Positions 4,557 to 17,645 of a stretch of DNA of 64,000 nt are shown here, piece after piece; positions within the stretch are counted from its first letter, which is position 1, and each line of letters opens with the position of its first letter. This DNA comes from an uncultured Bacilli bacterium (GTDB lineage: Bacteria; Bacillota_I; Bacilli_A; RFN20; CAG-826). The position numbers were made by a program, and so were the translations under genes. The DNA is taken from positions 5,617-69,616 of the forward strand of contig CALVOX010000007.1 in NCBI GenBank assembly GCA_944350425.1, in the 5' to 3' direction. A model generated the notes under the pieces. The model saw only the letters and a program-made list of their open reading frames with translations. It ran no database searches and had not been told where the DNA came from.

Positions 4557-5063
4557 TTACTTAAGAACAACCTTTACATCAGCTGGTGTAGCACCTTCAG
4601 CTTCAACTGTTCCAGTAATTGTAAGAGATGTAGCTCCATCAACGTTAACGAGTTTTGCAAAATCTTCCATTGAAAGTTTAATTGAAACTTCATTATCGTT
4701 AATTGTGGCTTCGCCCAATGATGTTTCTACATCCTTAATGGATTTAGAAGTAGCATAAGAAGTATCATCAAGTTTTACGTTACCTAAATTAATTTTTAAT
4801 GTAACGGATTGAAATACTTGAGAAACAGTGGAATAAATCAATTTACCATTATTATCAGAACTTAGATATGTTCTTAATTTAGTAATATCATATTCAACGC
4901 CATAATCGTTACTTGATAATAATTGCATATAGCCAACAAAAGGATTTTCTTCAGCTGAGTCAAAGCCTAAATCTCCAAGTAATCCTGTTAATTTCATGAC
5001 TTCAACTTCTTTAGTTTCATCATTAAATGCGGCTTCACTTCCTGAATCTAATCCAAGAATGAA
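4557..5063 (-). pseudogene. in-frame C-terminal continuation of lipoprotein paralog A, separated from 5064-7709 by a single TAA and with no other stop
   Basis: Same frame as 5064-7709 (5064-4557=507). Hand translation across 4998-5063 is open: ...GLK*FILGLDSGSEAAFNDETKEVEVMKLTG... Confidence 0.5.
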
Positions 5064-7709
5064 TTATTTTAGTCCTGTATATGCAGATCCATCTCCATTG
5101 ACATCGCCTAAAACGATGCTAGCTCCGCTTAATTGAATATCAGATATTAGTTGCCTGGGATTTTCCTCAGCACCTAAAACTTCAGTTGTTAAATCAATGA
5201 ATGCATTAACAGATGTAATAGTTTTGCAACTTAAGTCAATTGCGCCACTAGTTGCACTATCTTTGATTACATAACCAGTTGCAGTTCCATCTTTTGCAAC
5301 AACCTTATGACCAATAAATGATAACAATTCATTATATTGTTTGCCATAAACAACTGATTCTTGAACTGTACAATCACTGATTAAATTTTGATATTTTTGA
5401 TTTAACCAATTCTTTGTTTCGCTTAAGAAGTTAGCAACATCAGCATCATATAATGAAGTTAAATTAGAATTAGTTGTAAATCTATTTACTGTACTAACAC
5501 TAGCTTCACCTGAAATGATGTCGTCGACCATATCATCGAATGCTTCTTTGAAAGTTGAAACGTTATTTTCTTCAGCATTGAAGAAATCTTCGTATCCTTC
5601 TTCAACAGCAGTAACAAATGCATGAACTTTCTTATCTAATGTTCCTAAAGCTTTACCTGCGGTTTGTAAGCCTTCTGCAGCAGAAGCTAAATCTTTCATA
5701 GTGGAAAGTTTGTTATTTGTCCAAGTTGTAGTAATATCAGCTACTGTGACATAATTTGAACTTTCTAATTCTTTTGGTAAATATTTTTCACCTAATTTTG
5801 TTTTGAAATCAGCAACGACATCTTTGTATCTAGCAGATTGTCTTGTTAAAGCTACTTGTAAATTTTGTTTAACGGCAGCAACGTTTGCACATGATTTTAA
5901 TTGTCCTTCATATGTAGAAACGATGGATGCGTATAAGGAAGGATTGCTATTTTTGACTTTTGAATATACGGAATATTTTCCTAAATCAGCACCAACTTCA
6001 ACATAACCGTCTTTATTTACTGTATTACCACTTGCTAAATAAGGGTTTGCATATTCTTTATCCCAAGTTAAAACGTTAGCAACAGATTTGAAACCTACTA
6101 ATTTTTGTCCTTGATAAACTGGAGCACCGAAAATTGAACCATAAAGTGGATCTTTTGCTGCGATTTCTTCGGCTTGAGCTTTTAATGTTTTTAATGCGTC
6201 AGCAACAGCGTTTTCAATACGTTCTGCTTTGAAAGCTTGAAGACCATTAGCGACAACTGCATCTTCTAAAGCGATTTCGATTCTACCGATTAAGCCAGAA
6301 GTTGCATCAACATAGGATTCAATTGTTTTTGAATTGTCCTTATCTTCATTAACGAAGTTAGAAACAGTACCTTCAACAACGCCTTTTAATGTGACTTTAG
6401 CATTTGGAGAAGATGATAATGATTTAGCATCATCAATTTCTTTTGTGTATGAAGCAACAATACCTTCGACTAATTTTTCTTTAACGCCATCATATGTATC
6501 ATTGATTGCATCAACGCCTTCTTTTTGTAAAGCAATTTCGTTTTTGTTATTTAATGGTAATTCTGTTGCAGCACTTACTTTTGATGCATATTCTTCATAA
6601 ACTGCTCCAGGTAAAGTTTCAACTGATACACCATATTGAGCAAGTAAAGTAACCATTGCATCATAAGCTTCTTCAGCATTCTTATTTGCTTCTGGATCTA
6701 ACCAATCTTCTTTTGTAATTAAAGTTTCATAAGCATCTTGTAAACCTTCTAATGCAGTTTGCTTTCTTAAAGTTAATGTTGTTAATGTACCTTCAGCGAA
6801 AATAACTTTTGTTCCATCTTTACAAGCATGTTCGTTAACAACTTTAGAAATTTCTTCTAATGTTGTAGCAGCTTCGATAGCTGCTTTTGCAGTTTCTGCA
6901 TCTTTAGTTGAATCTTCTTCAGTGTATTTTTCGTTTGTAACACCTTCGATTAAGTCATCAACCATTGATGGTGCTAAAGATTTAGCATTATCAACCAATA
7001 ATTTATATTCATTTTGTAAAACTGTAACACCTTCTTGAGCAGCTTTTTTAGCAGCTTCTAATTTTTCAGTAGCAGTAGCACTATCTTCTAAATCGTTTAC
7101 AGCGTCTTCTACGTCGCCTTTTAATTCTTCTAATTTATCAAATAATGAATCATCAGCAAATGTAGCCTCAGCATATAAAGCATTTACACCTTTATCATCT
7201 TTTGTTCCATCTGGTGCTCTGAAAATTAAATGATCTTTATCAGTGATTTCTTCTAAGGCATTTTCTAATAAAGATTGTCCATATGAAGTTGCATCATTCC
7301 ATACTGCACCTGTTACTTGGATTGTACCATCATAAACATCAGCATCAGAAATAGTATAAGTTGAAGATGCAGGATCAAAATCAGTTACTGGTTCACCATT
7401 GATTTCAAAATAGACGAGTAAATTTTTAGTTTCATCTTTTGGTGTGAAAGTGAATGTTACTTTATCGTGTTCGCCTTCTGTAACGAAGTAAACATCTTGT
7501 TTAACACTACCACCTTGAATGTTATTGTCATTAATAACGATGACATCTTTGTAGGTTTTACCATCAACACCATCTTTACCTGGTTGACCGTCTTCCCCTG
7601 GTTTGCCTGGTTCACCTGGTGTACCTGGAGTTGTTTGATTACATGAAGAAACAACTAAACCTAAGGATAAGCATAAAGCTCCTAAAGTTAATAAATTTTT
7701 CTTTTTCAT
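5064..7709 (-). CDS. large surface lipoprotein, paralog A (881 aa to the TAA; ~1051 aa if read through), collagen-like GXY tract after the lipobox
   Basis: Signal peptide MKKKNLLTLGALCLSLGLVVSSC (lipobox VSSC), then GTPGEPGKPGEDGQPGKDGVDGK. Homologous throughout to the 8700-11687 and 11815-14835 proteins. Confidence 0.8.
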   Translation of the reverse strand: MKKKNLLTLGALCLSLGLVVSSCNQTTPGTPGEPGKPGEDGQPGKDGVDGKTYKDVIVINDNNIQGGSVKQDVYFVTEGEHDKVTFTFTPKDETKNLLVYFEINGEPVTDFDPASSTYTISDADVYDGTIQVTGAVWNDATSYGQSLLENALEEITDKDHLIFRAPDGTKDDKGVNALYAEATFADDSLFDKLEELKGDVEDAVNDLEDSATATEKLEAAKKAAQEGVTVLQNEYKLLVDNAKSLAPSMVDDLIEGVTNEKYTEEDSTKDAETAKAAIEAATTLEEISKVVNEHACKDGTKVIFAEGTLTTLTLRKQTALEGLQDAYETLITKEDWLDPEANKNAEEAYDAMVTLLAQYGVSVETLPGAVYEEYASKVSAATELPLNNKNEIALQKEGVDAINDTYDGVKEKLVEGIVASYTKEIDDAKSLSSSPNAKVTLKGVVEGTVSNFVNEDKDNSKTIESYVDATSGLIGRIEIALEDAVVANGLQAFKAERIENAVADALKTLKAQAEEIAAKDPLYGSIFGAPVYQGQKLVGFKSVANVLTWDKEYANPYLASGNTVNKDGYVEVGADLGKYSVYSKVKNSNPSLYASIVSTYEGQLKSCANVAAVKQNLQVALTRQSARYKDVVADFKTKLGEKYLPKELESSNYVTVADITTTWTNNKLSTMKDLASAAEGLQTAGKALGTLDKKVHAFVTAVEEGYEDFFNAEENNVSTFKEAFDDMVDDIISGEASVSTVNRFTTNSNLTSLYDADVANFLSETKNWLNQKYQNLISDCTVQESVVYGKQYNELLSFIGHKVVAKDGTATGYVIKDSATSGAIDLSCKTITSVNAFIDLTTEVLGAEENPRQLISDIQLSGASIVLGDVNGDGSAYTGLK

Positions 7710-7779
7710 AAATTAATTTAATCTCCTTAATGTAAAAAGAAAGTTTCTATTAAATAAGTGTTAGAAGAAAAAGAAAAAT
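7630..7779 (-). repeat. 5' cassette of paralog A (70-nt 5'UTR plus the first ~80 nt of CDS), identical to 14756-14905 as a direct repeat and inverted relative to the B copy
   Basis: Base-by-base comparison of 7630-7779 with 14756-14905. Confidence 0.8.
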
Positions 7780-7932
7780 TTAATCATATTAGCTAATAGC
7801 CATACATTTATTGTGTTTTAAAACTTTGATTTTTATATAGTTCTAAACAAAATAACTTTTTAGTTTTTAATACTAAAATTTTTGAATAATAAACCTTTGA
7901 AATAGAAACTTTTTTATTTTTAACTATTTTTT

Positions 7933-7940
7933 TGTATAAT
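7933..7940 (+). promoter_or_regulatory. extended -10 element TGTATAAT preceded by a T7 tract, inside the 1-kb ORF-free spacer
   Basis: TTTTTTTGTATAATAATC read directly. It is followed by the hairpin TGTCTTTC-TTTA-GAAAGACA at ~7976-7995. Confidence 0.3.
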
Positions 7941-8564
7941 AATCGGAGTTAAAATTCTAGTGATTATTAAAATTTTGTCTTTCTTTAGAAAGACATGATT
8001 CTAAAGAAAGTTACAAATTATTCTAAAAAAGCTCTTAAAGTGACACTAGTAGAAAATTAGTAAAAATGTATTGCATAATAGAAACTTTAATAGTATTATA
8101 TAGGTGTCGTTATGGAACGTAACTCTTTTTGTTATCGAAAAATTAATTAAAATAAATAATGATTATTGTTATTGCTATAACATACTATTAATCATTATTT
8201 AGATAAATTGATTTAGCGATAATCTTAATTAGAAAGAATTAATTAATGTATTATCTACTTAATTAATTAAGAAAGAGTGGATTAAAGATGTAATAGTTAT
8301 TGCTTCGTTTAAATTGTTTAAATAAAGATAACTATCTACATGAATCGATAACTATTTATTATATTGTCTTAAGTTATCTTTATTACTTCTTAGCAAGTAG
8401 CTAAGAAGATTAAAATCAACCTGATGTTGATTTTAATTAAACAAGTTAGATAGTACTTAATAATTGTTATTTTCTTTGGTTCACAAACTGCTATTAATTA
8501 AATAGAAATACATAAAATTAATTTGATCTTGTTAGGAAAGTTGTTAACTCTAATTTGTCAATTA

Positions 8565-8593
8565 AAAAAGTAAATAATATATAAGAGGACAAT
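8565..8593 (+). promoter_or_regulatory. sigma-A promoter for lipoprotein B (TTGTCA-17 nt-TATATA), ~107 nt upstream of its ATG
   Basis: -35 at 8565-8570, 17-nt spacer, -10 at 8588-8593. Confidence 0.5.
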
Positions 8594-8654
8594 TAGATTA
8601 GATAAGTTTACTAATCATTTGAAGTCAAATTTAGACTCGTGGTTATATTACTTA

Positions 8655-8848
8655 TTTAATAGAAAGTTTCTTTTTACATTAAGGAGATTAAATTAATTTA
8701 TGAAAAAGAAAAATTTATTAACTTTAGGAGCTTTATGCTTATCCTTAGGTTTAGTTGTTTCTTCATGTAACAACACTCCTGAAAAAGGCGATCCAGGTGA
8801 ACCAGGTGTAGATGGTCAACCAGGTAAAGATGGTGTCGATGGAAAAAC
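8655..8848 (+). repeat. ~194-bp 5' cassette of paralog B (UTR + signal peptide + GXY region), an inverted repeat of 14687-14880 with one mismatch
   Basis: Direct comparison. Identity runs through codon 51 (…GVDGKTY) and then breaks. Confidence 0.8.
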
Positions 8849-11687
8849 CTATGTCCCAATTATTGTTGTTAACGATTTAAACATCAAAGGTGGAACTATT
8901 GACCAAGACGTTTATTTTGCAGTACAAGGTGAACATGATAAAGTAACTTTCACATTCACAGCAGAAAGTGAAGGAAATGTAATTACTTATTTTGAAATTA
9001 ATGGTGAAGAAGTAAGCATTGCTCCAGATGCAACAAGTTATACTGTTGAAGATATTGATACATCTTATCCAAATGGTATTCAAGTTACTGGATTAACATA
9101 TCAAAGTCTTGATGCTTATGCTACAACCGGTGTAAAGGATTTCTTCAAAACAATTTCTGATGCTGATAATCAAGTTAAAAACGGCACTGAACCAGAAGGC
9201 TTAGTAAAGAGTGCATATTACGATGTTACTTTAGAACAACTTGTTACTGAAAAAGTCGAAGAAGTTAAAAAGGCTTATACTGATTTAGGCAAAGATGCTA
9301 CTGTAACCGAAAAAGTTGAAGCTATTAAAACAGCAACAAAAAAAGCTGAAGCTGAAATCCAAGAAGCATATGATAATTTAGTTACAGCTGCTAAAAACAC
9401 TGCTAAAACTGCATTAAAAACTTTAGATGAATCTTTAGTAAATAGCAATTATACTGAAGCAGATAGAAAAACTGTTTTAGATACAGCAAATGCTGAAGTC
9501 GATGCTGCAACTTCTTTACAAGGATTAGCTGCAGTCGTTAATACTGCTACAGCAAATCTTAAAGGCGCTAAATATAACAAATTATTCGCTCTTAAAGCTC
9601 AAGCTTTTGCTGAAATTAAATCAGCCGTTGAAGCAACTGGCTCATTTGAAAAAGATGTCGAAGCTAATAAAGATATCTTAGCAGATTATGGTATTACTGC
9701 TGATTCAAAACCAAGCGTAATCGCTAAAACATATTATGCTCAAGCTTCTGCTGCTACAGAAATTACTACTGTTGTAGTTGAAGAAAACGGAGTAAAAACT
9801 ACTTTAACATCAATTGGTAAAGAAGCTAAAGAAGCAATCGAAGCTTCAGTTGATAGCGTTAAAGGAACATTACTTGCTAATATTAAAGCTGCTTATATCG
9901 CTGAAGTCGATAATTCTAAAGTTTTAGCTGATGCTCAAAATGCTGCTTCTACAATTAAAGGTGTCATTGAAGCAACAGTTTCTAACTTTGAAGTTCAAGC
10001 AGAAGCTGACCCAACTCACTACACAATTTCAACATTTGTTTCTACAACTGGTACAGATGGTCACACAGCATTAAATTATGATTATACAGATGGCTTAATC
10101 TATAGACTTGAAAAAGCTGTTACAGAAGCTGTCGTTGCTAATGGTGTTCAAGCTTTCAATAGCGAAAGAATCGAAAATGCAAAACAAGCTGCTATTGCTT
10201 CATTCCAAGAAAAAGTTGATGAAATTAAAGCTGCTGATGCCGGATACGTTGAAGCAGTTTCTTATACAAAAGATTCATCTGGTAAGATTACACCAAAGAA
10301 AACATCTTGGGTTCTTGCGACTGTAGAAGAAACAAATGTTACTTTAGATACTCCTTTCTTTACTTCTACTGGAGAAGGTGAAGGAAAAACTTGGTCACTT
10401 GTTGCTCCAGAAACAGGATTAGTTACAGAAGAAGGTGGTAAACGCTTAACAGACTATAATGTTGACACTTGGTTAACAACATTAAAAGGAGTTACTTTAT
10501 CTTCTCCATTAGTTGTTAAACGATTTGAATCAACTCATATTGGTGATTTTGAAAAGATTTATGATAAAGCAATCGAGGTATTAACAAAATCATTAAGAAC
10601 AAAACTTGCTCTTGGTGATATTGAAGGAGAATATATTTCTTCAGATGATGTCTTAACCTCTTTCAATAATAGTGTTAAAGATAAGACTTTAAACGAAATT
10701 ATTAAGGTTGGACAATCCACATATGCTTCAAAAGAATTATTAACTAAATTAAATGATGCTGTTGAAGATGATATTGCTGCAAGGGTTGAAAAAGATAGTG
10801 CTTATGAAGCCTTATTTGGTAGCGAAGAAACATCCGTTTATAGAGAAGAATTAGGCAATTTAGTTGATTCATTAGTTTCTGGACAAGCAGGAGAAAGTGA
10901 AGTTAACGCATTCATTGAAGAAGATAATTTAAATTCTTTATACGCTCAAGATGTTGCAACATATCTTGACGATGCAAAAGATGTCTTAACACAAGTTTAT
11001 CAAAACTTAATTAGTGGAAAAGATGTCTCCGTTGATGAATACAGAACATTAACAAAACTCTATAACGATTATAATTCTTGGATTGGTCAAAAGATTAAAC
11101 AAAATTCAGACGGCGAATGGGTCCTTGATGAAAAAGGTTCAGTAGTCTATCCATGTAACACTATAACAACAGTTGATAAATGGTTAGCAGATGCTAGATT
11201 ATCTTTATCAAATGTAACAAGCGATGAGGAAGAAACAAATGAAATTACAGCTTTAAAACTTTATAGTTTAAAGACAGGAAATGCTGGTATAGATGCTATT
11301 CTAGGCATTAAATTTGATGGTAATTTAAATATCACAGGAGATGCAGAAAACCCATCTGATTACACTTCTCAAATAAGTGGCTTAGAAAATTTAAGTGATT
11401 TATTAAGTTTAGAAAAACTTACTCTAACAGGAAAAGTTGGTCTAGCAAAAAGCGTTAACAACGAAAATACTGCAGATTATCTTTGCCAAGTTACTAAAGT
11501 TGAAGTAAAGAAAGGTGAAGAAGTATCCAAAGATTTCACTTTAGAATTTGATGGAGAAAATGCAACATTTTCAGTTGATATGACTTCACTTCAAAGAGGT
11601 GTAAAATACACTGTTTCAATTACTGTTGCTTCCCCAGTAATTAATGAACAAACTTTTGCCTTCACAGTCACATTACCATCTGAATAA
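8700..11687 (+). CDS. large surface lipoprotein, paralog B (995 aa)
   Basis: RBS AAGGAGA. Lipoprotein signal with VSSC lipobox, GXY tract, and blocks shared with C (LANIKAAYIAEVDNSKVLAD, YPCNTITTVDKWLADAR). Confidence 0.85.
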   Translation: MKKKNLLTLGALCLSLGLVVSSCNNTPEKGDPGEPGVDGQPGKDGVDGKTYVPIIVVNDLNIKGGTIDQDVYFAVQGEHDKVTFTFTAESEGNVITYFEINGEEVSIAPDATSYTVEDIDTSYPNGIQVTGLTYQSLDAYATTGVKDFFKTISDADNQVKNGTEPEGLVKSAYYDVTLEQLVTEKVEEVKKAYTDLGKDATVTEKVEAIKTATKKAEAEIQEAYDNLVTAAKNTAKTALKTLDESLVNSNYTEADRKTVLDTANAEVDAATSLQGLAAVVNTATANLKGAKYNKLFALKAQAFAEIKSAVEATGSFEKDVEANKDILADYGITADSKPSVIAKTYYAQASAATEITTVVVEENGVKTTLTSIGKEAKEAIEASVDSVKGTLLANIKAAYIAEVDNSKVLADAQNAASTIKGVIEATVSNFEVQAEADPTHYTISTFVSTTGTDGHTALNYDYTDGLIYRLEKAVTEAVVANGVQAFNSERIENAKQAAIASFQEKVDEIKAADAGYVEAVSYTKDSSGKITPKKTSWVLATVEETNVTLDTPFFTSTGEGEGKTWSLVAPETGLVTEEGGKRLTDYNVDTWLTTLKGVTLSSPLVVKRFESTHIGDFEKIYDKAIEVLTKSLRTKLALGDIEGEYISSDDVLTSFNNSVKDKTLNEIIKVGQSTYASKELLTKLNDAVEDDIAARVEKDSAYEALFGSEETSVYREELGNLVDSLVSGQAGESEVNAFIEEDNLNSLYAQDVATYLDDAKDVLTQVYQNLISGKDVSVDEYRTLTKLYNDYNSWIGQKIKQNSDGEWVLDEKGSVVYPCNTITTVDKWLADARLSLSNVTSDEEETNEITALKLYSLKTGNAGIDAILGIKFDGNLNITGDAENPSDYTSQISGLENLSDLLSLEKLTLTGKVGLAKSVNNENTADYLCQVTKVEVKKGEEVSKDFTLEFDGENATFSVDMTSLQRGVKYTVSITVASPVINEQTFAFTVTLPSE

Positions 11688-11728
11688 AATAATTGTTATC
11701 TTAAATTATTTAAAAGATATTTATAAAA

Positions 11729-11762
11729 AAACAGAAAACCTATAAAAGTTTTCTGTTTTTTA
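11729..11762. terminator. bidirectional terminator (AAACAGAAAAC-loop-GTTTTCTGTTT) between convergent B and C
   Basis: 11-bp stem, A-run upstream and T-run downstream. Confidence 0.6.
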
Positions 11763-11814
11763 TTATCTTTAATTAATTAAAGATATTATAAAATAAATCT
11801 AATTAAATTTAAGA

Positions 11815-14800
11815 TTATTCACCGGTTGTAACTAATTCGGAGAAATCTAATTGAATAGTTTTTACAACATTTGTTCCAGCTGCATCATAGATTTCAATTG
11901 TTAAGAAATCTTTATCATTATAATCAGCTTTAGATCCTTCAGCACCACTAACAGCAACTAAAGTTAAGAATGAACTTGAAGTTTGATTCTTTACTTCTGA
12001 AATTCCTGTTTTGTAGTCTGCAGCAGTTGCAGATCTATAAGTTACTACTTTATATCCAGGTGTTTTTTCCCATCTGAATAAGAAGACTTGTGTGTTTTCT
12101 TTATAAGCTTCACCCCAAGAAGTACCAGCTAAATCTTTACCTGCACTAACTGTTTTGCCTTCAACTTTAATATTTACAAGTGCATCTGTTGCTGATGTAA
12201 CTTCGAACTTTAATGATGGGTCATTTTTAAGAGTGATATCAACACCACCAATTGTTAATGTTCCTTCTTCAACGCTTTCAACAACGACATCTGGTGTAAC
12301 TTCATATGTAGGTGTAGTTCCAGATTTGCTTAATGAAGTTCTAGCATCATTTAACCATTTGTTAACTGCATGTAAAGTATCACATGGATAAACGACTTTA
12401 CCATTTTCTTCATCTAATACCCAAGCGTCACTTTCGTTTTTAACAATCTTTGCACCGATGAATGAAATATAGTCATTATAAACTTTTTGATAATTTCTAT
12501 ATTGTTCAACTGAAACTAAATCCTCACTAATTTTGTTTTGATAAATTTGTGCTAAAACATCTTTAGCATCAGTTAAGTAATCGTTAACATCGCTTGCATA
12601 TAAAGAATCTAAGTTAGCTTTAGTAACAAATGATGTAACATCACTTTCACCAGCTGCACCTGTTAATAATTTAGTAATCATATCATTTACAGCAGCTCTA
12701 TATGAAGAGTTAGAAGTTGGTTGTACTGGATCTCCGCCATCGAAGAATACCTTATAACCATTATCTTTAACGTCTCTTGCTTTAACATCGCTTGCAATTG
12801 CCTTATCAAGAGTAACTAATGAATCTGATGAGGATGTAGTTGATTGAGCGACTTCTAATATTTCATCAAAAGTTTTATTCTTAACAGCTTCATCAAACTT
12901 GCTGCTTACTTGTTCTGTGCTAACATATGTGCCCTTAGTTTTAGGTAATGATTCTGCTTTTAATTCAGAAACATAGAGTGCTTTAGCAGCATCATAGATT
13001 TTTTTGAAATCACCAGTATGAGCTGTTTCCCATTTCTTAACTTCTAATACAGGGTAAGTACCAGCAATTGTTGCTTCCTTTAATTCGCCTAACCAATCTT
13101 CTACGCTATATCCACTTAATACAGCGCCTGTACCTGTTGATGTAGAAGAAGCTTCAGTAATTTGAAGACCACTTACTTCTGGTAAACTATATGTCTTTTC
13201 TGTATCACCAGTAACAGCAAATAATGGGTTATCAATTTTTACTGCAGGGTTAGCTGTACTGTCTAATACATATTCTTTAACAGTTGGAGTAACAACACCA
13301 TCTGCTTCTTTATATGAGACTGCTTTAACGTAACCTGCATCTGCTTTAATTTCATTGACTTTTGCTTCAAATGCTTCAATAGCATCTTGTTTAGCGTTTT
13401 CTAATCTTTCATTACTGAAAGCAACGTTACCGGATTGAGTAATAACTTTGGCTAAAGCTACTTCTAAGTCATAAATTAATTGACCTGATTCTGTAGTACC
13501 GACATAATCAGATAAATTCTTTGTATCCTTATCTAATACGATGTAGTTTGAACAAACAGTTTCGATAACACCTTTAATAGTTGATGCAGCATTTGGTTGA
13601 TCTGCTAAAACTTTGGAATTATCAACTTCTGCGAGATAAGCAGCTTTGATATTAGCAAGTAATGTTTCTTTAACACCCTTTGTTGCTGCGTCAATAGCGG
13701 CTTTACATTCATTAACTAAAACGATTTCGCCATCTTCGTTAACTTCAATTGTAGTTGCTTCAGAAATTTGATCTGTATATGTTTTTGCAATAGCTGCTGG
13801 ATCTTGATCTAAAGAAACACCCCATTCTTCTAATGCAGCTTTTGTTCCTTCATCAGCAAATTCTTCAACATATCCTTTAATTGCAGGAGTATCGAGGTAA
13901 GCAGCGATTTGGTTTAAAGCTTGATTCTTTAAGTTATAAAGTTTGTTGTATTGAGCATCAGCAGTTAAAGCAGAACCATTAATAATTTTACTTAAACCTT
14001 CTAATGTTGTAGCTGCATCAATAGCTGCTTTTCCTTCAGCTAAGATTGCTTCTCTATCTTCGTCTAAGAATGTTTCTTGAGTAAGTGCAGCATCTAATGC
14101 TTCTAAGTGTCCTTCAGCTAAAACTTTTTTATCAGCTAAGACTTCGGCATAAGCTTCATCAAGAGCTTTGATAGCTTCGTTAGCAGCAGTTTCACCTGCA
14201 GTTAATCTTTCTTGAATAGTAGCATCTTCTTCTAATTCTGATAAAGCAGTTCCAATATCTAATTTACCTTGTTTGTAAACACCTTCTAATGTTTTATCAG
14301 CGTATGCTGATTGTTTATCTGCAGCAGGTGTTTCAGCTGTTTCACCAACATTTGTAACGATTTGGCTATCGTTAGCGACCATTGATTTCCAGTGTTCTTC
14401 TAAAAGTTTTGTTGAAACAGATAATGCATCACCGAAGACTGCACCAGTAACTTGAATTGAACCTTGATATACATCTGCATCAGTTAAAGTATAAGAGGTT
14501 GAACCTGGAACTAAATCTGTAACTACTTTGTTATTAATTTCTAAAGAAACGATGAATTCATCAGCGTTTTCAGCTGTGAAAGTAAATGTAACGCTATCGT
14601 GTTGGCCTTCTGTTACAAAGAAAACACTTTGTTCGACATCACCACCAACGAGGTTATCATCGTGAATAACAATAACATCTTTATAAGTTTTACCATCGAC
14701 ACCATCTTTACCTGGTTGACCATCTACACCTGGTTCACCTGGATCGCCTTTTTCAGGAGTGTTGTTACATGAAGAAACAACTAAACCTAAGGATAAGCAT

Positions 14801-14835
14801 AAAGCTCCTAAAGTTAATAAATTTTTCTTTTTCAT
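11815..14835 (-). CDS. large surface lipoprotein, paralog C (1006 aa)
   Basis: First 51 aa and the 5'UTR are identical to B. The rest is a mosaic homolog of both B and A. Confidence 0.85.
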   Translation of the reverse strand: MKKKNLLTLGALCLSLGLVVSSCNNTPEKGDPGEPGVDGQPGKDGVDGKTYKDVIVIHDDNLVGGDVEQSVFFVTEGQHDSVTFTFTAENADEFIVSLEINNKVVTDLVPGSTSYTLTDADVYQGSIQVTGAVFGDALSVSTKLLEEHWKSMVANDSQIVTNVGETAETPAADKQSAYADKTLEGVYKQGKLDIGTALSELEEDATIQERLTAGETAANEAIKALDEAYAEVLADKKVLAEGHLEALDAALTQETFLDEDREAILAEGKAAIDAATTLEGLSKIINGSALTADAQYNKLYNLKNQALNQIAAYLDTPAIKGYVEEFADEGTKAALEEWGVSLDQDPAAIAKTYTDQISEATTIEVNEDGEIVLVNECKAAIDAATKGVKETLLANIKAAYLAEVDNSKVLADQPNAASTIKGVIETVCSNYIVLDKDTKNLSDYVGTTESGQLIYDLEVALAKVITQSGNVAFSNERLENAKQDAIEAFEAKVNEIKADAGYVKAVSYKEADGVVTPTVKEYVLDSTANPAVKIDNPLFAVTGDTEKTYSLPEVSGLQITEASSTSTGTGAVLSGYSVEDWLGELKEATIAGTYPVLEVKKWETAHTGDFKKIYDAAKALYVSELKAESLPKTKGTYVSTEQVSSKFDEAVKNKTFDEILEVAQSTTSSSDSLVTLDKAIASDVKARDVKDNGYKVFFDGGDPVQPTSNSSYRAAVNDMITKLLTGAAGESDVTSFVTKANLDSLYASDVNDYLTDAKDVLAQIYQNKISEDLVSVEQYRNYQKVYNDYISFIGAKIVKNESDAWVLDEENGKVVYPCDTLHAVNKWLNDARTSLSKSGTTPTYEVTPDVVVESVEEGTLTIGGVDITLKNDPSLKFEVTSATDALVNIKVEGKTVSAGKDLAGTSWGEAYKENTQVFLFRWEKTPGYKVVTYRSATAADYKTGISEVKNQTSSSFLTLVAVSGAEGSKADYNDKDFLTIEIYDAAGTNVVKTIQLDFSELVTTGE

Positions 14836-14905
14836 AAATTAATTTAATCTCCTTAATGTAAAAAGAAAGTTTCTATTAAATAAGTGTTAGAAGAAAAAGA
14901 AAAAT
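14687..14905 (-). repeat. 5' cassette of paralog C; inverted repeat partner of 8655-8848 and direct repeat partner of 7630-7779
   Basis: Direct sequence comparison. Confidence 0.8.
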
Positions 14906-14966
14906 ATCTTCCTACTAAGATTTTTTAGTAGGAAGATTGTGTAATAAGAACGTTTCTTATTACACA
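14906..14966 (-). terminator. two tandem perfect hairpins (12-bp stem ATCTTCCTACTA/TAGTAGGAAGAT and 13-bp stem TGTGTAATAAGAA/TTCTTATTACACA) between the recombinase 3' end and the lipoprotein C 5'UTR
   Basis: Stems read directly. On the minus strand they are followed by a T-rich run (ATTTTTCTTTTTC). Confidence 0.5.
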
Positions 14967-15085: not shown

Positions 15086-16288
15086 TTAATCATTAGGAGT
15101 AATCTTTTTTAAAATCTTAGTAGCTTCTTCTAAAGCTTTATTGTCATCAATATAGTTATTTTCATTAATAAAATCACTTGCTTGACCAAGAAGTGTTTTT
15201 CTCGATTTAGAAGAAGCACCAGCATTATATAATTCAGTATTAATTGATTTTCTAGAGAATCCATGAATAGTGTTATAAGGAATAGAAGCTTTTAAACAAT
15301 ATCTTTTAAGTTTTTTTCTTATTCCACTATTGGTGTAATTAAATAAGATTGCTTCTTGATTATCAATTAAGTTATTTACTTCTAAATATTCTTTAAGTAA
15401 CTTAACATTGTTATTTGTATATATAATCGTTTTATAAGAAGAAGAGGTTTTAAGTCTAGAAGTTAGTCTTCCGTTAATTTGAAGTTTCTGTCTAGAAATA
15501 TTAATTAAAGCAATATTCTTTCTATTATCAAAAGAAATATCTTTAACTTTAATACCTAAGAATTCTCCAATTCTTAAAGAAGAAAAATAAAGTAATGTGA
15601 ACATTACTTTATCATTAAAGTTGTCAATAACTTTAATTAATTTCATTAATTCTTCTTTAGAAGTATATTTATTTCTTGATACTTTCTTTATTTCAACTTT
15701 CGATTTAAATTTAACTAAGATAAGTAATAAATCATCTTTATCTTCACTATTAATTAAACGTAACTTTCTCGAATATTCAATTAACTTTATTAATATTGAT
15801 AATATTTGGTTCTTTAAATGAGTAGAAACATTTAAAGAACCAAGATAGTTTCTAAATAAAGTTAATTCTTCTATTGAATATAATCTATTTATATCATTAT
15901 TAAAGTAATTATAGATATGATGATAAAACAATCGATCTAGATTATAGATATAAGATGTTGATAATTCATCTTTTCTAGAACTGATATAAAAAGAATATAG
16001 TTTCTCTAATGTAAATAAAGAGATATCTAATCTTTTAATATTCTTATTATTCTTATTAGAAGAATTAAGAGATAATAACGAAGATGAAAGTAGTTTATCA
16101 AGATCATTAATTCGTTTTACTAATACTTTAGTTAAAGTTTCTTCTAAGTTAGAAACATAAGTTTTATCTTCAAAACTTAAGTTATCATTATCACTAATAA
16201 ATAAATGATAGTAGTTACCATTATTATCGAGTTTTATTCTCTTATCGATATAATAATGATTTGTTTTTTTATTTAAAATAACACTCAT
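15086..16288 (-). CDS. tyrosine site-specific recombinase (phage-integrase family)
   Basis: Box I-like SLRIGEFLGIKVKDI (Arg), box II-like HGFSRKS…LLGQAS, and a C-terminal Tyr in NNYIDDNKA. RBS AGGAGG. 400 aa. Confidence 0.8.
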   Translation of the reverse strand: MSVILNKKTNHYYIDKRIKLDNNGNYYHLFISDNDNLSFEDKTYVSNLEETLTKVLVKRINDLDKLLSSSLLSLNSSNKNNKNIKRLDISLFTLEKLYSFYISSRKDELSTSYIYNLDRLFYHHIYNYFNNDINRLYSIEELTLFRNYLGSLNVSTHLKNQILSILIKLIEYSRKLRLINSEDKDDLLLILVKFKSKVEIKKVSRNKYTSKEELMKLIKVIDNFNDKVMFTLLYFSSLRIGEFLGIKVKDISFDNRKNIALINISRQKLQINGRLTSRLKTSSSYKTIIYTNNNVKLLKEYLEVNNLIDNQEAILFNYTNSGIRKKLKRYCLKASIPYNTIHGFSRKSINTELYNAGASSKSRKTLLGQASDFINENNYIDDNKALEEATKILKKITPND

Positions 16289-17007: not shown

Positions 17008-17589
17008 TTTAATATCTCCTAGCTTTTTTTTAATTATATCTTAAATAATAAAAGGGAGATATTAAAATGAATAAATATATTTATAATATTACTGTGTATT
17101 TAAGAATAATTATTGTCAATTAAAAATGTTTTGTCCAATTATAATGGGGTGTATAATTACAAAATTACTATTCTGTGTTAATAAACTATGTTTATTAACA
17201 CTAGAAGAATTTGCTACTTAAATTCACTTTTTGTAACCAAAGAGCTTCAATATAATAATTGTCGAAATATTTTTAAATTTATATTGAAAAAATTTAATTT
17301 TCAGTTTATATTAATTTCACATTTTGAAGTTAACTATTCTTCAAAATAATTGTATTAGTTTATTAGCTAATATCTTCACTTATTGAAGTTTTAAATTAGT
17401 TATTATATAGAAATAAATAATTAAATTGTTTGGAATTAGTAATAAATATTTTTCTAAAGTAAAGTGCACTTATTTCAAAATTAATATTTATTGTATTTTC
17501 CTATAGATTTAGGTTATTTGCTATCAATATCTTAATAAAAAGTATTGAATTTTATATTCATTTTAGAGATAATTACAAGGCTTTTGCTA

Positions 17590-17640
17590 GAGTGTCTTAC
17601 CCAATGACTAACCACTCTTAAAAGAAAACAGGGGGATATA
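17590..17640 (+). promoter_or_regulatory. stem-loop plus A-rich tail immediately 5' of queT; candidate preQ1-type riboswitch or leader, not confirmed
   Basis: AGAGTG-18 nt loop-CACTCT, then TAAAAGAAAACAGGGGG, ending 6 nt before the ATG. The loop is longer than in the canonical preQ1-I aptamer. Confidence 0.2.
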
Positions 17641-17645
17641 TTTCA

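Follow-up and report, generated by a model that had tools for sequence, protein, structure and literature searches.

Single-promoter shuffles of lipoprotein genes are textbook immune-evasion devices of pathogenic mycoplasmas. In the vsa system the silent genes lack a 5' end and the recombination site lies inside the coding region, and in the fim system the invertible element fimS, 314 bp long with 9-bp repeats, turns one operon ON or OFF. The Vpma locus of Mycoplasma agalactiae combines a conserved 5' untranslated region (UTR) and signal peptide with a unique promoter, an adjoining recombinase gene, and recombination sites in the 5' UTR (PMC2268961); the mpl genes of Mycoplasma penetrans are thought to switch independently, each via its own adjacent invertible promoter (PMC2268961). 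Here we analyze a locus that resembles the Vpma locus in layout, located in a 64,000-nucleotide (64-kb) stretch of DNA (“the window”) from an uncultured Bacilli bacterium (GenBank assembly GCA_944350425.1, contig CALVOX010000007.1, positions 5,617 to 69,616 of the forward strand). Three lipoprotein genes (A, B, and C) lie here beside a tyrosine recombinase gene, and A and B are separated by a long gene-free spacer. The locus is very probably a three-gene, single-promoter antigen-switching system of the Vpma/Vsp type, operated by recombinase-driven inversion. This reading draws directly on the repeat architecture, the single unique flank at each locus, the occurrence of both B/C orientations in one strain, and the crossover interval.

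Three cassette copies and one promoter-like flank

Gene A (positions 5064 to 7709 of the window, minus strand) encodes an 881-aa lipoprotein with the lipobox LVVSSC and a collagen-like Gly-X-Y tract, gene B (8700 to 11687, plus strand) a lipoprotein of 995 aa, and gene C (11815 to 14835, minus strand) one of 1006 aa. Genes A and B are divergent, and their start regions are the arms of an inverted repeat. A repeat search placed these arms at 7639-7766 and 8643-8770; they are 128 nt long, 97% complementary, and separated by 876 gene-free nt with a G+C content of ~0.18 to 0.21, in agreement with the inverted identity of about 120 bp and the AT-rich spacer described in the initial annotation of this DNA. 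Exact identity is restricted to 8650-8665 and 8667-8770, which together cover the 5' UTR and the coding sequence as far as its nt 71. A 71-nt cassette probe found three exact copies (0.00 expected by chance), the third at 14765-14835, the start of gene C.

Across the three copies, the 5' UTR and signal-peptide region are identical or one base apart over 120 to 141 nt. The cassettes of A and C are identical over 141 nt, including 20 nt of upstream flank, and those of B and C differ at a single position near the 5' edge, where B has G at 8666 and the C cassette has C. In the window arrangement B lies downstream of the promoter-like flank described below, and A and C are predicted to be silent; their cassettes and flanks are called silent on that understanding. 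The silent cassette of A (7639 to 7779, minus strand) consists of signal-peptide codons (7639-7709), a 5' UTR with a ribosome-binding site (RBS) and the crossover segment at 7744-7759, and the silent flank ATTTTTCTTTTTCTTCTAAC (7760-7779, minus strand), which is the 20 nt common to A and C. That of C (14765 to 14905, minus strand) has its crossover segment at 14870-14885 and its silent flank at 14886-14905. Within each genome the cassettes change in concert.

The upstream flank of the B cassette is unrelated to the flank of A and C. It ends in TGGTTATATT, and a −10-like TATATT (8644-8649) directly abuts the sequence common to the cassettes; the silent sites have TCTAAC in place of TATATT, and their flank is T-rich. 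Each locus examined, in all strains, has exactly one distinct flank with a −10-like box, and the other copies have the silent flank. Together with TTGAAG at 8619-8624, across a 19-nt gap, the −10-like box is read from the sequence as the putative promoter of the expression site (8619 to 8649, plus strand), and genes placed behind it would be expressed.

Inversion of the B/C segment in assemblies

The window is identical (100%) to scaffold_313 of European Nucleotide Archive (ENA) record ERZ28614751. A second scaffold, ERZ28614154 scaffold_870, was found via the exact B and C proteins and matches the window at 99.94 to 100% identity, with the segment 8650-14885 (6236 nt) inverted at 100% identity. 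Its gene order is A, spacer, C, B, recombinase, so that C lies behind the promoter flank. Contigs of equal gene order were pooled in the look-up; five had the window's order and two the alternative order, and the B and C proteins were exact in both arrangements.

In scaffold_870 it is the C variant of the cassette that follows the promoter flank, and the G is found with gene B on the recombinase side; in all four samples read, the contigs that contain B likewise have the G at 8666 together with it. Because this marker travels with the gene body, the exchange took place within the 16 nt of 8650-8665, the crossover segment ACTTATTTAATAGAAA (plus strand), which is bounded by the G/C marker at 8666 and makes up a small part of ~190 nt of near-identity open to homologous recombination. 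A stretch of 16 nt is also too short for a k-mer misjoin by the assembler. A contig from a third sample (L011, BRZ_KR) contains the B-C segment with an identical 77-nt recombinase-side flank at both ends, ending exactly at the marker. Such ends mark a k=77 graph node that was joined on both sides, and both junctions were therefore present in this one sample.

The same inversion was found in a second strain, in which the B'-C' segment is 100% identical over 6235 nt and lies inverted in L028 compared to L025, L026, L027, and L029. Gene A is missing from this strain, and other genes separate its recombinase gene from the cassettes; the conserved part of the spacer (positions 8034-8649 in the window) is kept beside its expression site.

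It could be argued that there is no dedicated switch, that the repeats are simply the conserved 5' ends of paralogues, and that the different orders arose from assembler choice or occasional RecA-type recombination. Although the repeats do exceed many assembly k-mers, and a join in one contig (L018, described below) could be a repeat-induced chimera, the scaffold_870 junction requires reads that cross the unique flank, the 16 shared nt, and the marker. Homologous recombination would have had 174 further identical nt open to exchange, yet the marker is with B in four samples. In addition, the ends of L011 share exactly 77 nt, both orientations occur in two strain backgrounds, and in all strains the locus comes with a conserved recombinase gene. 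We consider the absence of a dedicated switch very improbable.

Several related contigs differ at the locus in other ways. In another sample, an A-like body is directly joined to the recombinase-side flank (L018:11386-13993), either through deletion between two directly repeated silent sites or through a repeat-induced assembly chimera; the two cannot be told apart because of the 141-nt identity of the A and C cassettes. Two ISL3-family transposase genes occupy gene B's place in L023:3126-5768 (BRZ_RM), where the recombinase-side site is cut at the crossover segment. Contig L032 ends 34 nt short of the gene that was looked up. In the second strain, Fic, DUF6273, and other genes lie between the recombinase and the cassettes (L025:4505-9690), and gene A is replaced by two small open reading frames (ORFs) of 60 and 122 aa and a nucleotidyltransferase/HepT-like pair (L025:16979-18873).

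Recombinase, candidate core site, and proposed mechanism

The recombinase gene (15086 to 16288, minus strand) adjoins gene C and encodes a 400-aa tyrosine recombinase (PF00589, E 5.8e-14). The protein scores far below the NCBIfam equivalog cut-offs for XerC, XerD, and XerA, and a PDB sequence search with it returned no match. In an alignment of 13 members of its family, R239, K280, H342, R346, Q369, and Y379 are invariant, with Q at the position where H or W is usual. The gene is present with the locus in all strains examined, and we infer that its product is the catalyst of the inversion.

The crossover sites at A, B, and C are oriented left, right, and left. A candidate core of two imperfect inverted arms around a 6-nt center can be drawn at each site: at the expression site the arms would be GGTTATATTA (8641-8650) and TAATAGAAAG (8657-8666), with CTTATT (8651-8656) as the center, and at the silent sites the left arm would be CTTCTAACA and the right arm TAATAGAAAC, with the same CTTATT center. 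The division into arms and center is provisional. An inverted partial site copy at 8598-8607 was considered as the basis of a small promoter flip, and this candidate was rejected because the copy is not conserved at the DNA level.

We propose the following mechanism. A single expression site (8650), preceded by the promoter-bearing block 8034-8649, would serve the locus, with A and C as silent copies. The tyrosine recombinase would recombine the expression site with a silent site of opposite orientation, in the 5' UTR core, with crossover inside 8650-8665 and likely in the central region CTTATT. (i) Exchange between the expression site and the C site inverts 8650-14885, and B and C trade places behind the promoter, as documented in the assemblies. 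(ii) Were the expression site to recombine with the A site, the spacer (7760-8649) would be inverted and the promoter would come to lie before A. (iii) Exchange between the A and C sites would delete the promoter.

Downstream of the recombinase gene, on its 3' side, are two adjacent terminator hairpins (14906 to 14966, minus strand) that precede gene C, of which the hairpin 14937-14906 is followed by a T-rich run. They are kept in a related metagenome-assembled genome (MAG), with compensatory changes, and are predicted to insulate the silent gene C.

A number of points weigh against this account. The orientations come from assemblies, in which an inverted repeat of 128 to 200 nt can be resolved arbitrarily, and the identical stretch of the second strain, 157 nt long, holds no marker. 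The putative promoter, with its 19-nt gap, is a weak match to the consensus and was missed by a simple promoter scan. In the second strain the recombinase gene lies ~5 kb from the cassettes. Finally, in the scaffolds of this strain that were read, A is never behind the promoter, and A carries a nonsense codon.

Spacer orientation and gene A

The initial annotation proposed that the spacer is a fim-like invertible promoter segment, inversion of which would redirect the promoter from B to A. What stands of this proposal is an inversion switch that moves one promoter between lipoprotein genes, probably driven by the recombinase encoded in the locus; what does not stand is a two-gene ON/OFF switch, as there are three sites and the documented inversion is that of the 6.2-kb B-C segment and not of the 876-nt spacer. 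A stricter version, in which inversion of the 876-nt spacer itself is the principal event and switches transcription between the divergent genes A and B, has a chance that we place a little short of even. The A site equals the proven C site over its 141 nt and faces the opposite way from the expression site, and the concerted evolution of the cassettes in each genome implies that A takes part in some kind of exchange. A two-state flip alone, however, cannot account for the B/C swap, and the second strain, which is without gene A, keeps the block and still switches B' and C'.

The observed orientations of the spacer, for which the scope is the scaffolds actually read, bear on the same question. 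The spacer has the window's orientation in both scaffolds of this strain and in the related scaffold L023. In another related scaffold, L024, it is reversed relative to the conserved IPPT-side backbone genes, as a toggle between A and B would predict, but both spacer-flanking genes there have deletions in the signal-peptide region and the expression-site gene has a frameshift (L024:5446-6600). L024 is weak evidence for a spacer flip because these flanking genes are damaged. The same scaffold has a further downstream family gene, P0052, without a recombination site.

Within the three-gene switch that we favor, a spacer flip towards A is plausible and would be expected mechanistically, because the A site is the same as the C site and inverted relative to the expression site. 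Such a flip would join the GACTCGTGGTTATATT-cassette to the A-specific TGTAATCAAACAACTCC, and the flipped-spacer junction, from promoter flank to A, would read GACTCGTGGTTATATTACTTATTTAATAGAAAC...TCATGTAATCAAACAACTCC.

Gene A is cut by an in-frame TAA at 5064-5066, where close relatives (1056 to 1112 aa) have Ser. A 146-aa ORF (4557 to 4997, minus strand) continues in the same frame, aligns to the C terminus of P0033, and is the severed C-terminal part of A.

Content and predicted structure of the spacer

The initial annotation had reported that no ORF in the spacer exceeds 12 codons. Longer ones are present, of 21 aa (ATG start), 32 aa (GTG), and 34 aa (TTG), and none is gene-like; a small-protein gene in the spacer was ruled out on the basis of these lengths (34 aa or less).

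The spacer has two parts. The left part (7780 to 8033, plus strand) is variable and rich in insertions and deletions, and three elements in it are conserved between strains. The first is a copy of AATAGAAACTTT (7901-7912), which is conserved in all strains. The second is the extended −10 element TGTATAAT at 7933-7940, behind a T7 tract at 7927-7933, as the initial annotation had noted; it reads TGTATACT in relatives and is kept as TGTATA(A/C)T in four strains. The third is a hairpin at 7976-7995. The right part (8034 to 8649, plus strand) is the conserved expression-site block, which contains no ORF, has an extensive predicted fold, and is 92 to 97% identical to three other strains, comparable to neighboring genes. 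A second extra copy of AATAGAAACTTT lies within it (8077-8088), and the short palindromes of the initial annotation were found at ~8388-8410 and 8411-8439. BLAST of 8030-8660 against the window gave no second copy, and the idea that the block is a copy of a mobile element was rejected. A profile of the block run with nhmmer against the loci of a second species found no diverged copy.

The right arm of the site, the 12-mer AATAGAAA[C/G]TTT, occurs five times without mismatch in the window (0.18 expected), always at the locus. Both spacer copies of AATAGAAACTTT are in the same place and orientation in all strains and are co-oriented with the expression site, and they may be accessory sites of the recombinase.

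The predicted fold of the block is dominated by a ~360-nt hairpin (8202-8559) with three small hairpins at its tip and many G-U pairs on the plus strand, where BLAST sees no inverted repeat in the DNA. The minimum free energy (MFE) of the plus strand is −157.7 kcal/mol, compared to about −105 kcal/mol for shuffled sequences (z, −6.3 with 20 shuffles and −9.2 with 24 shuffles), and that of the minus strand is −114.6 kcal/mol (z, −5.8 to −6.0); coding-sequence controls gave z values near 0. A consensus structure was predicted from four close sequences and evaluated on those same sequences. The plus-strand structure has 215 pairs, with 14 one-sided changes that keep pairing, 2 compensatory changes, and 7 broken pairs, and the minus-strand structure has 174 pairs, with 4, 0, and 7, respectively. 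Of the paired positions 5.8% are variable, compared to 19.4% of the unpaired positions, and 12 of 500 shuffles reach the observed covariation score. The pairing pattern would favor a plus-strand RNA, weakly so because the sequences are only four and close and the structure was predicted from them.

The initial annotation had also suggested that the spacer may encode a regulatory RNA and had recommended an Rfam or covariance search. Rfam 15 gave nothing above chance in 7400-9000 at an E value of ≤1, and at gathering score it found two tRNAs only in the whole window; the comparison of strains showed the right two thirds of the spacer to be conserved and strongly structured, with the two compensatory pairs. 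One interpretation is that ~8034-8649, perhaps transcribed from the TGTATAAT promoter at 7933, is a structured plus-strand leader or noncoding RNA that controls or stabilizes the transcript of the expression site. This would add to the switch rather than replace it. It would fit the conservation of the block next to an indel-rich left part, the retention of the block beside the expression site even without A, the plus-strand MFE below that of shuffles with controls near 0, the lead of the plus strand over the minus strand in pairs and in one-sided and compensatory changes, the lower variability of paired columns, and the extended −10 conserved in four strains. The minus strand folds well too, however, and AT-rich palindromic DNA could act at the DNA level; the four close sequences yield two covarying pairs and a score that shuffles can match, the test is partly circular, and no Rfam family matches. 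A role of the block as RNA is thus a tentative reading, somewhat on the doubtful side.

A joint reading goes further. The leader or noncoding RNA, starting from the TGTATA(A/C)T promoter, and the AATAGAAACTTT copies at 7901 and 8077, as accessory sites, would together form a ~750-nt module. We regard this combination as unlikely on the present evidence. It is equally speculative that the accessory sites of such a module would favor exchanges that involve the expression site over exchange between silent sites.

Another intergenic region of the window, between the DJ-1 and QueT genes (17008-17645), has a plus-strand fold far better than that of shuffles (z, −6.3). No Rfam family, preQ1 riboswitches included, reached threshold there, and the region may hold an undescribed leader of queuosine salvage genes.

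Lipoprotein family and surroundings of the locus

The A, B, and C proteins have a common start, MKKKNLLTLGALCLSLGLVVSSC, and a lipobox signal peptide in common, followed by a collagen-like Gly-X-Y tract, and their bodies are 30 to 42% identical. About 40 relatives in a public protein collection have nearly the same signal peptide and very different bodies. Pfam and PDB sequence searches assigned the lipoproteins to no family, apart from a sub-threshold Collagen match on A, and an NCBIfam search of B gave no match. A structure model of B (predicted local distance difference test [pLDDT], 79) has an immunoglobulin (Ig)-like N-terminal domain and long helices; a fold search with it returned generic Ig-like matches only and no match to a solved structure. 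A two-way terminator hairpin (11726 to 11761) separates genes B and C, which converge halfway along the invertible segment.

In the second species, the three family genes of a 13-kb contig (L030:192-12916) all point the same way, and the signal peptide is a variant, MKKKNLLALSALVLSLGLTVSSC; the contig contains neither a recombinase gene nor the conserved block. Scans of JGI metagenomes for the cassette and for a conserved-block motif gave 0 matches each, and a scan of a genome collection found a sole related MAG, in which the contig stops within the cassette. A 460-aa ATPase_2/DUF234 (STAND-like) protein is encoded next to the locus (1253-2635), and in related strains McrBC and AAA genes are found near it, which suggests a variable neighborhood of defense genes.

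Comparison with known systems

The switch proposed here offers a concrete, testable 16-nt site and enzyme, and it illustrates that ordinary metagenome assemblies can expose such switching, crossover point included. New leads on the control of such switches come from the conserved structured block and from the additional copies of the site. A literature search on such switches in RF39 or Acholeplasma, and on the sample accessions, found nothing relevant.

Among described systems, fimS of Escherichia coli, with its recombinases FimB and FimE, and the M. penetrans mpl genes share with this locus a promoter segment between inverted repeats and tyrosine recombinases encoded nearby. A segment bounded by inverted repeats is indeed present (128-nt arms and an 876-nt spacer with the promoter-like flank). 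The locus departs from these systems in that its repeats consist of the 5' ends of genes, a single promoter would serve three genes through three sites rather than turning a single operon ON and OFF, and the documented inversion moves genes and not the promoter. In the MBA/UU376 system of Ureaplasma parvum, surface protein genes of opposite orientation are expressed alternately through inversion at short inverted repeats (PMC3047005); it is the nearest analogue of the proposed A/B toggle. That system is described as giving rise to chimeric genes, whereas the exchange here falls in the 5' UTR and the proteins remain exact. The Vsa/HvsR system of Mycoplasma pulmonis likewise has a single expression site, to which site-specific inversions by a tyrosine recombinase bring silent genes (PMC2268961); every gene here is, in contrast, complete, with its own RBS and start codon.

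The closest parallels are Vpma/Xer1 of M. agalactiae and Vsp/Mbr of Mycoplasma bovis. As at this locus, their surface lipoprotein genes are clustered paralogues in which the 5' UTR and the signal peptide are conserved; a tyrosine recombinase gene adjoins the cluster, the promoter (putative here) is unique, and inversions at sites in the 5' UTR bring a silent gene behind it (PMC2268961). The site lies at −50 to −35 from the ATG here, and the vpma site lies within −72 to −51. Vpma-type is meant here as a likeness in layout and presumed working, leaving aside shared ancestry with Xer1 or with the vpma site. The differences are considerable. Systems of the Vpma/Vsp type belong to hosts of the Mycoplasma hominis group, whereas the host here is an uncultured Bacilli bacterium that uses the standard code, as supported by 80 TGG codons inside long ORFs and by TGA ending 3 of 39 ORFs. 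The cluster comprises three genes and not six, and its proteins, ~1000 aa long with a collagen-like tract, match no known family. The recombinase does not reach the Xer cut-offs, and at one position it has Q instead of the usual H or W. Upstream of the expression site there is a conserved structured block of ~620 nt. Should the structured module with accessory sites prove true, no Vpma-type switch would have been described outside Mycoplasma before this one. The logic of the single-promoter lipoprotein shuffle very probably operates in an uncultured, standard-code gut bacterium with different proteins and a divergent recombinase, and the design is either more widespread than thought or the product of repeated origins.

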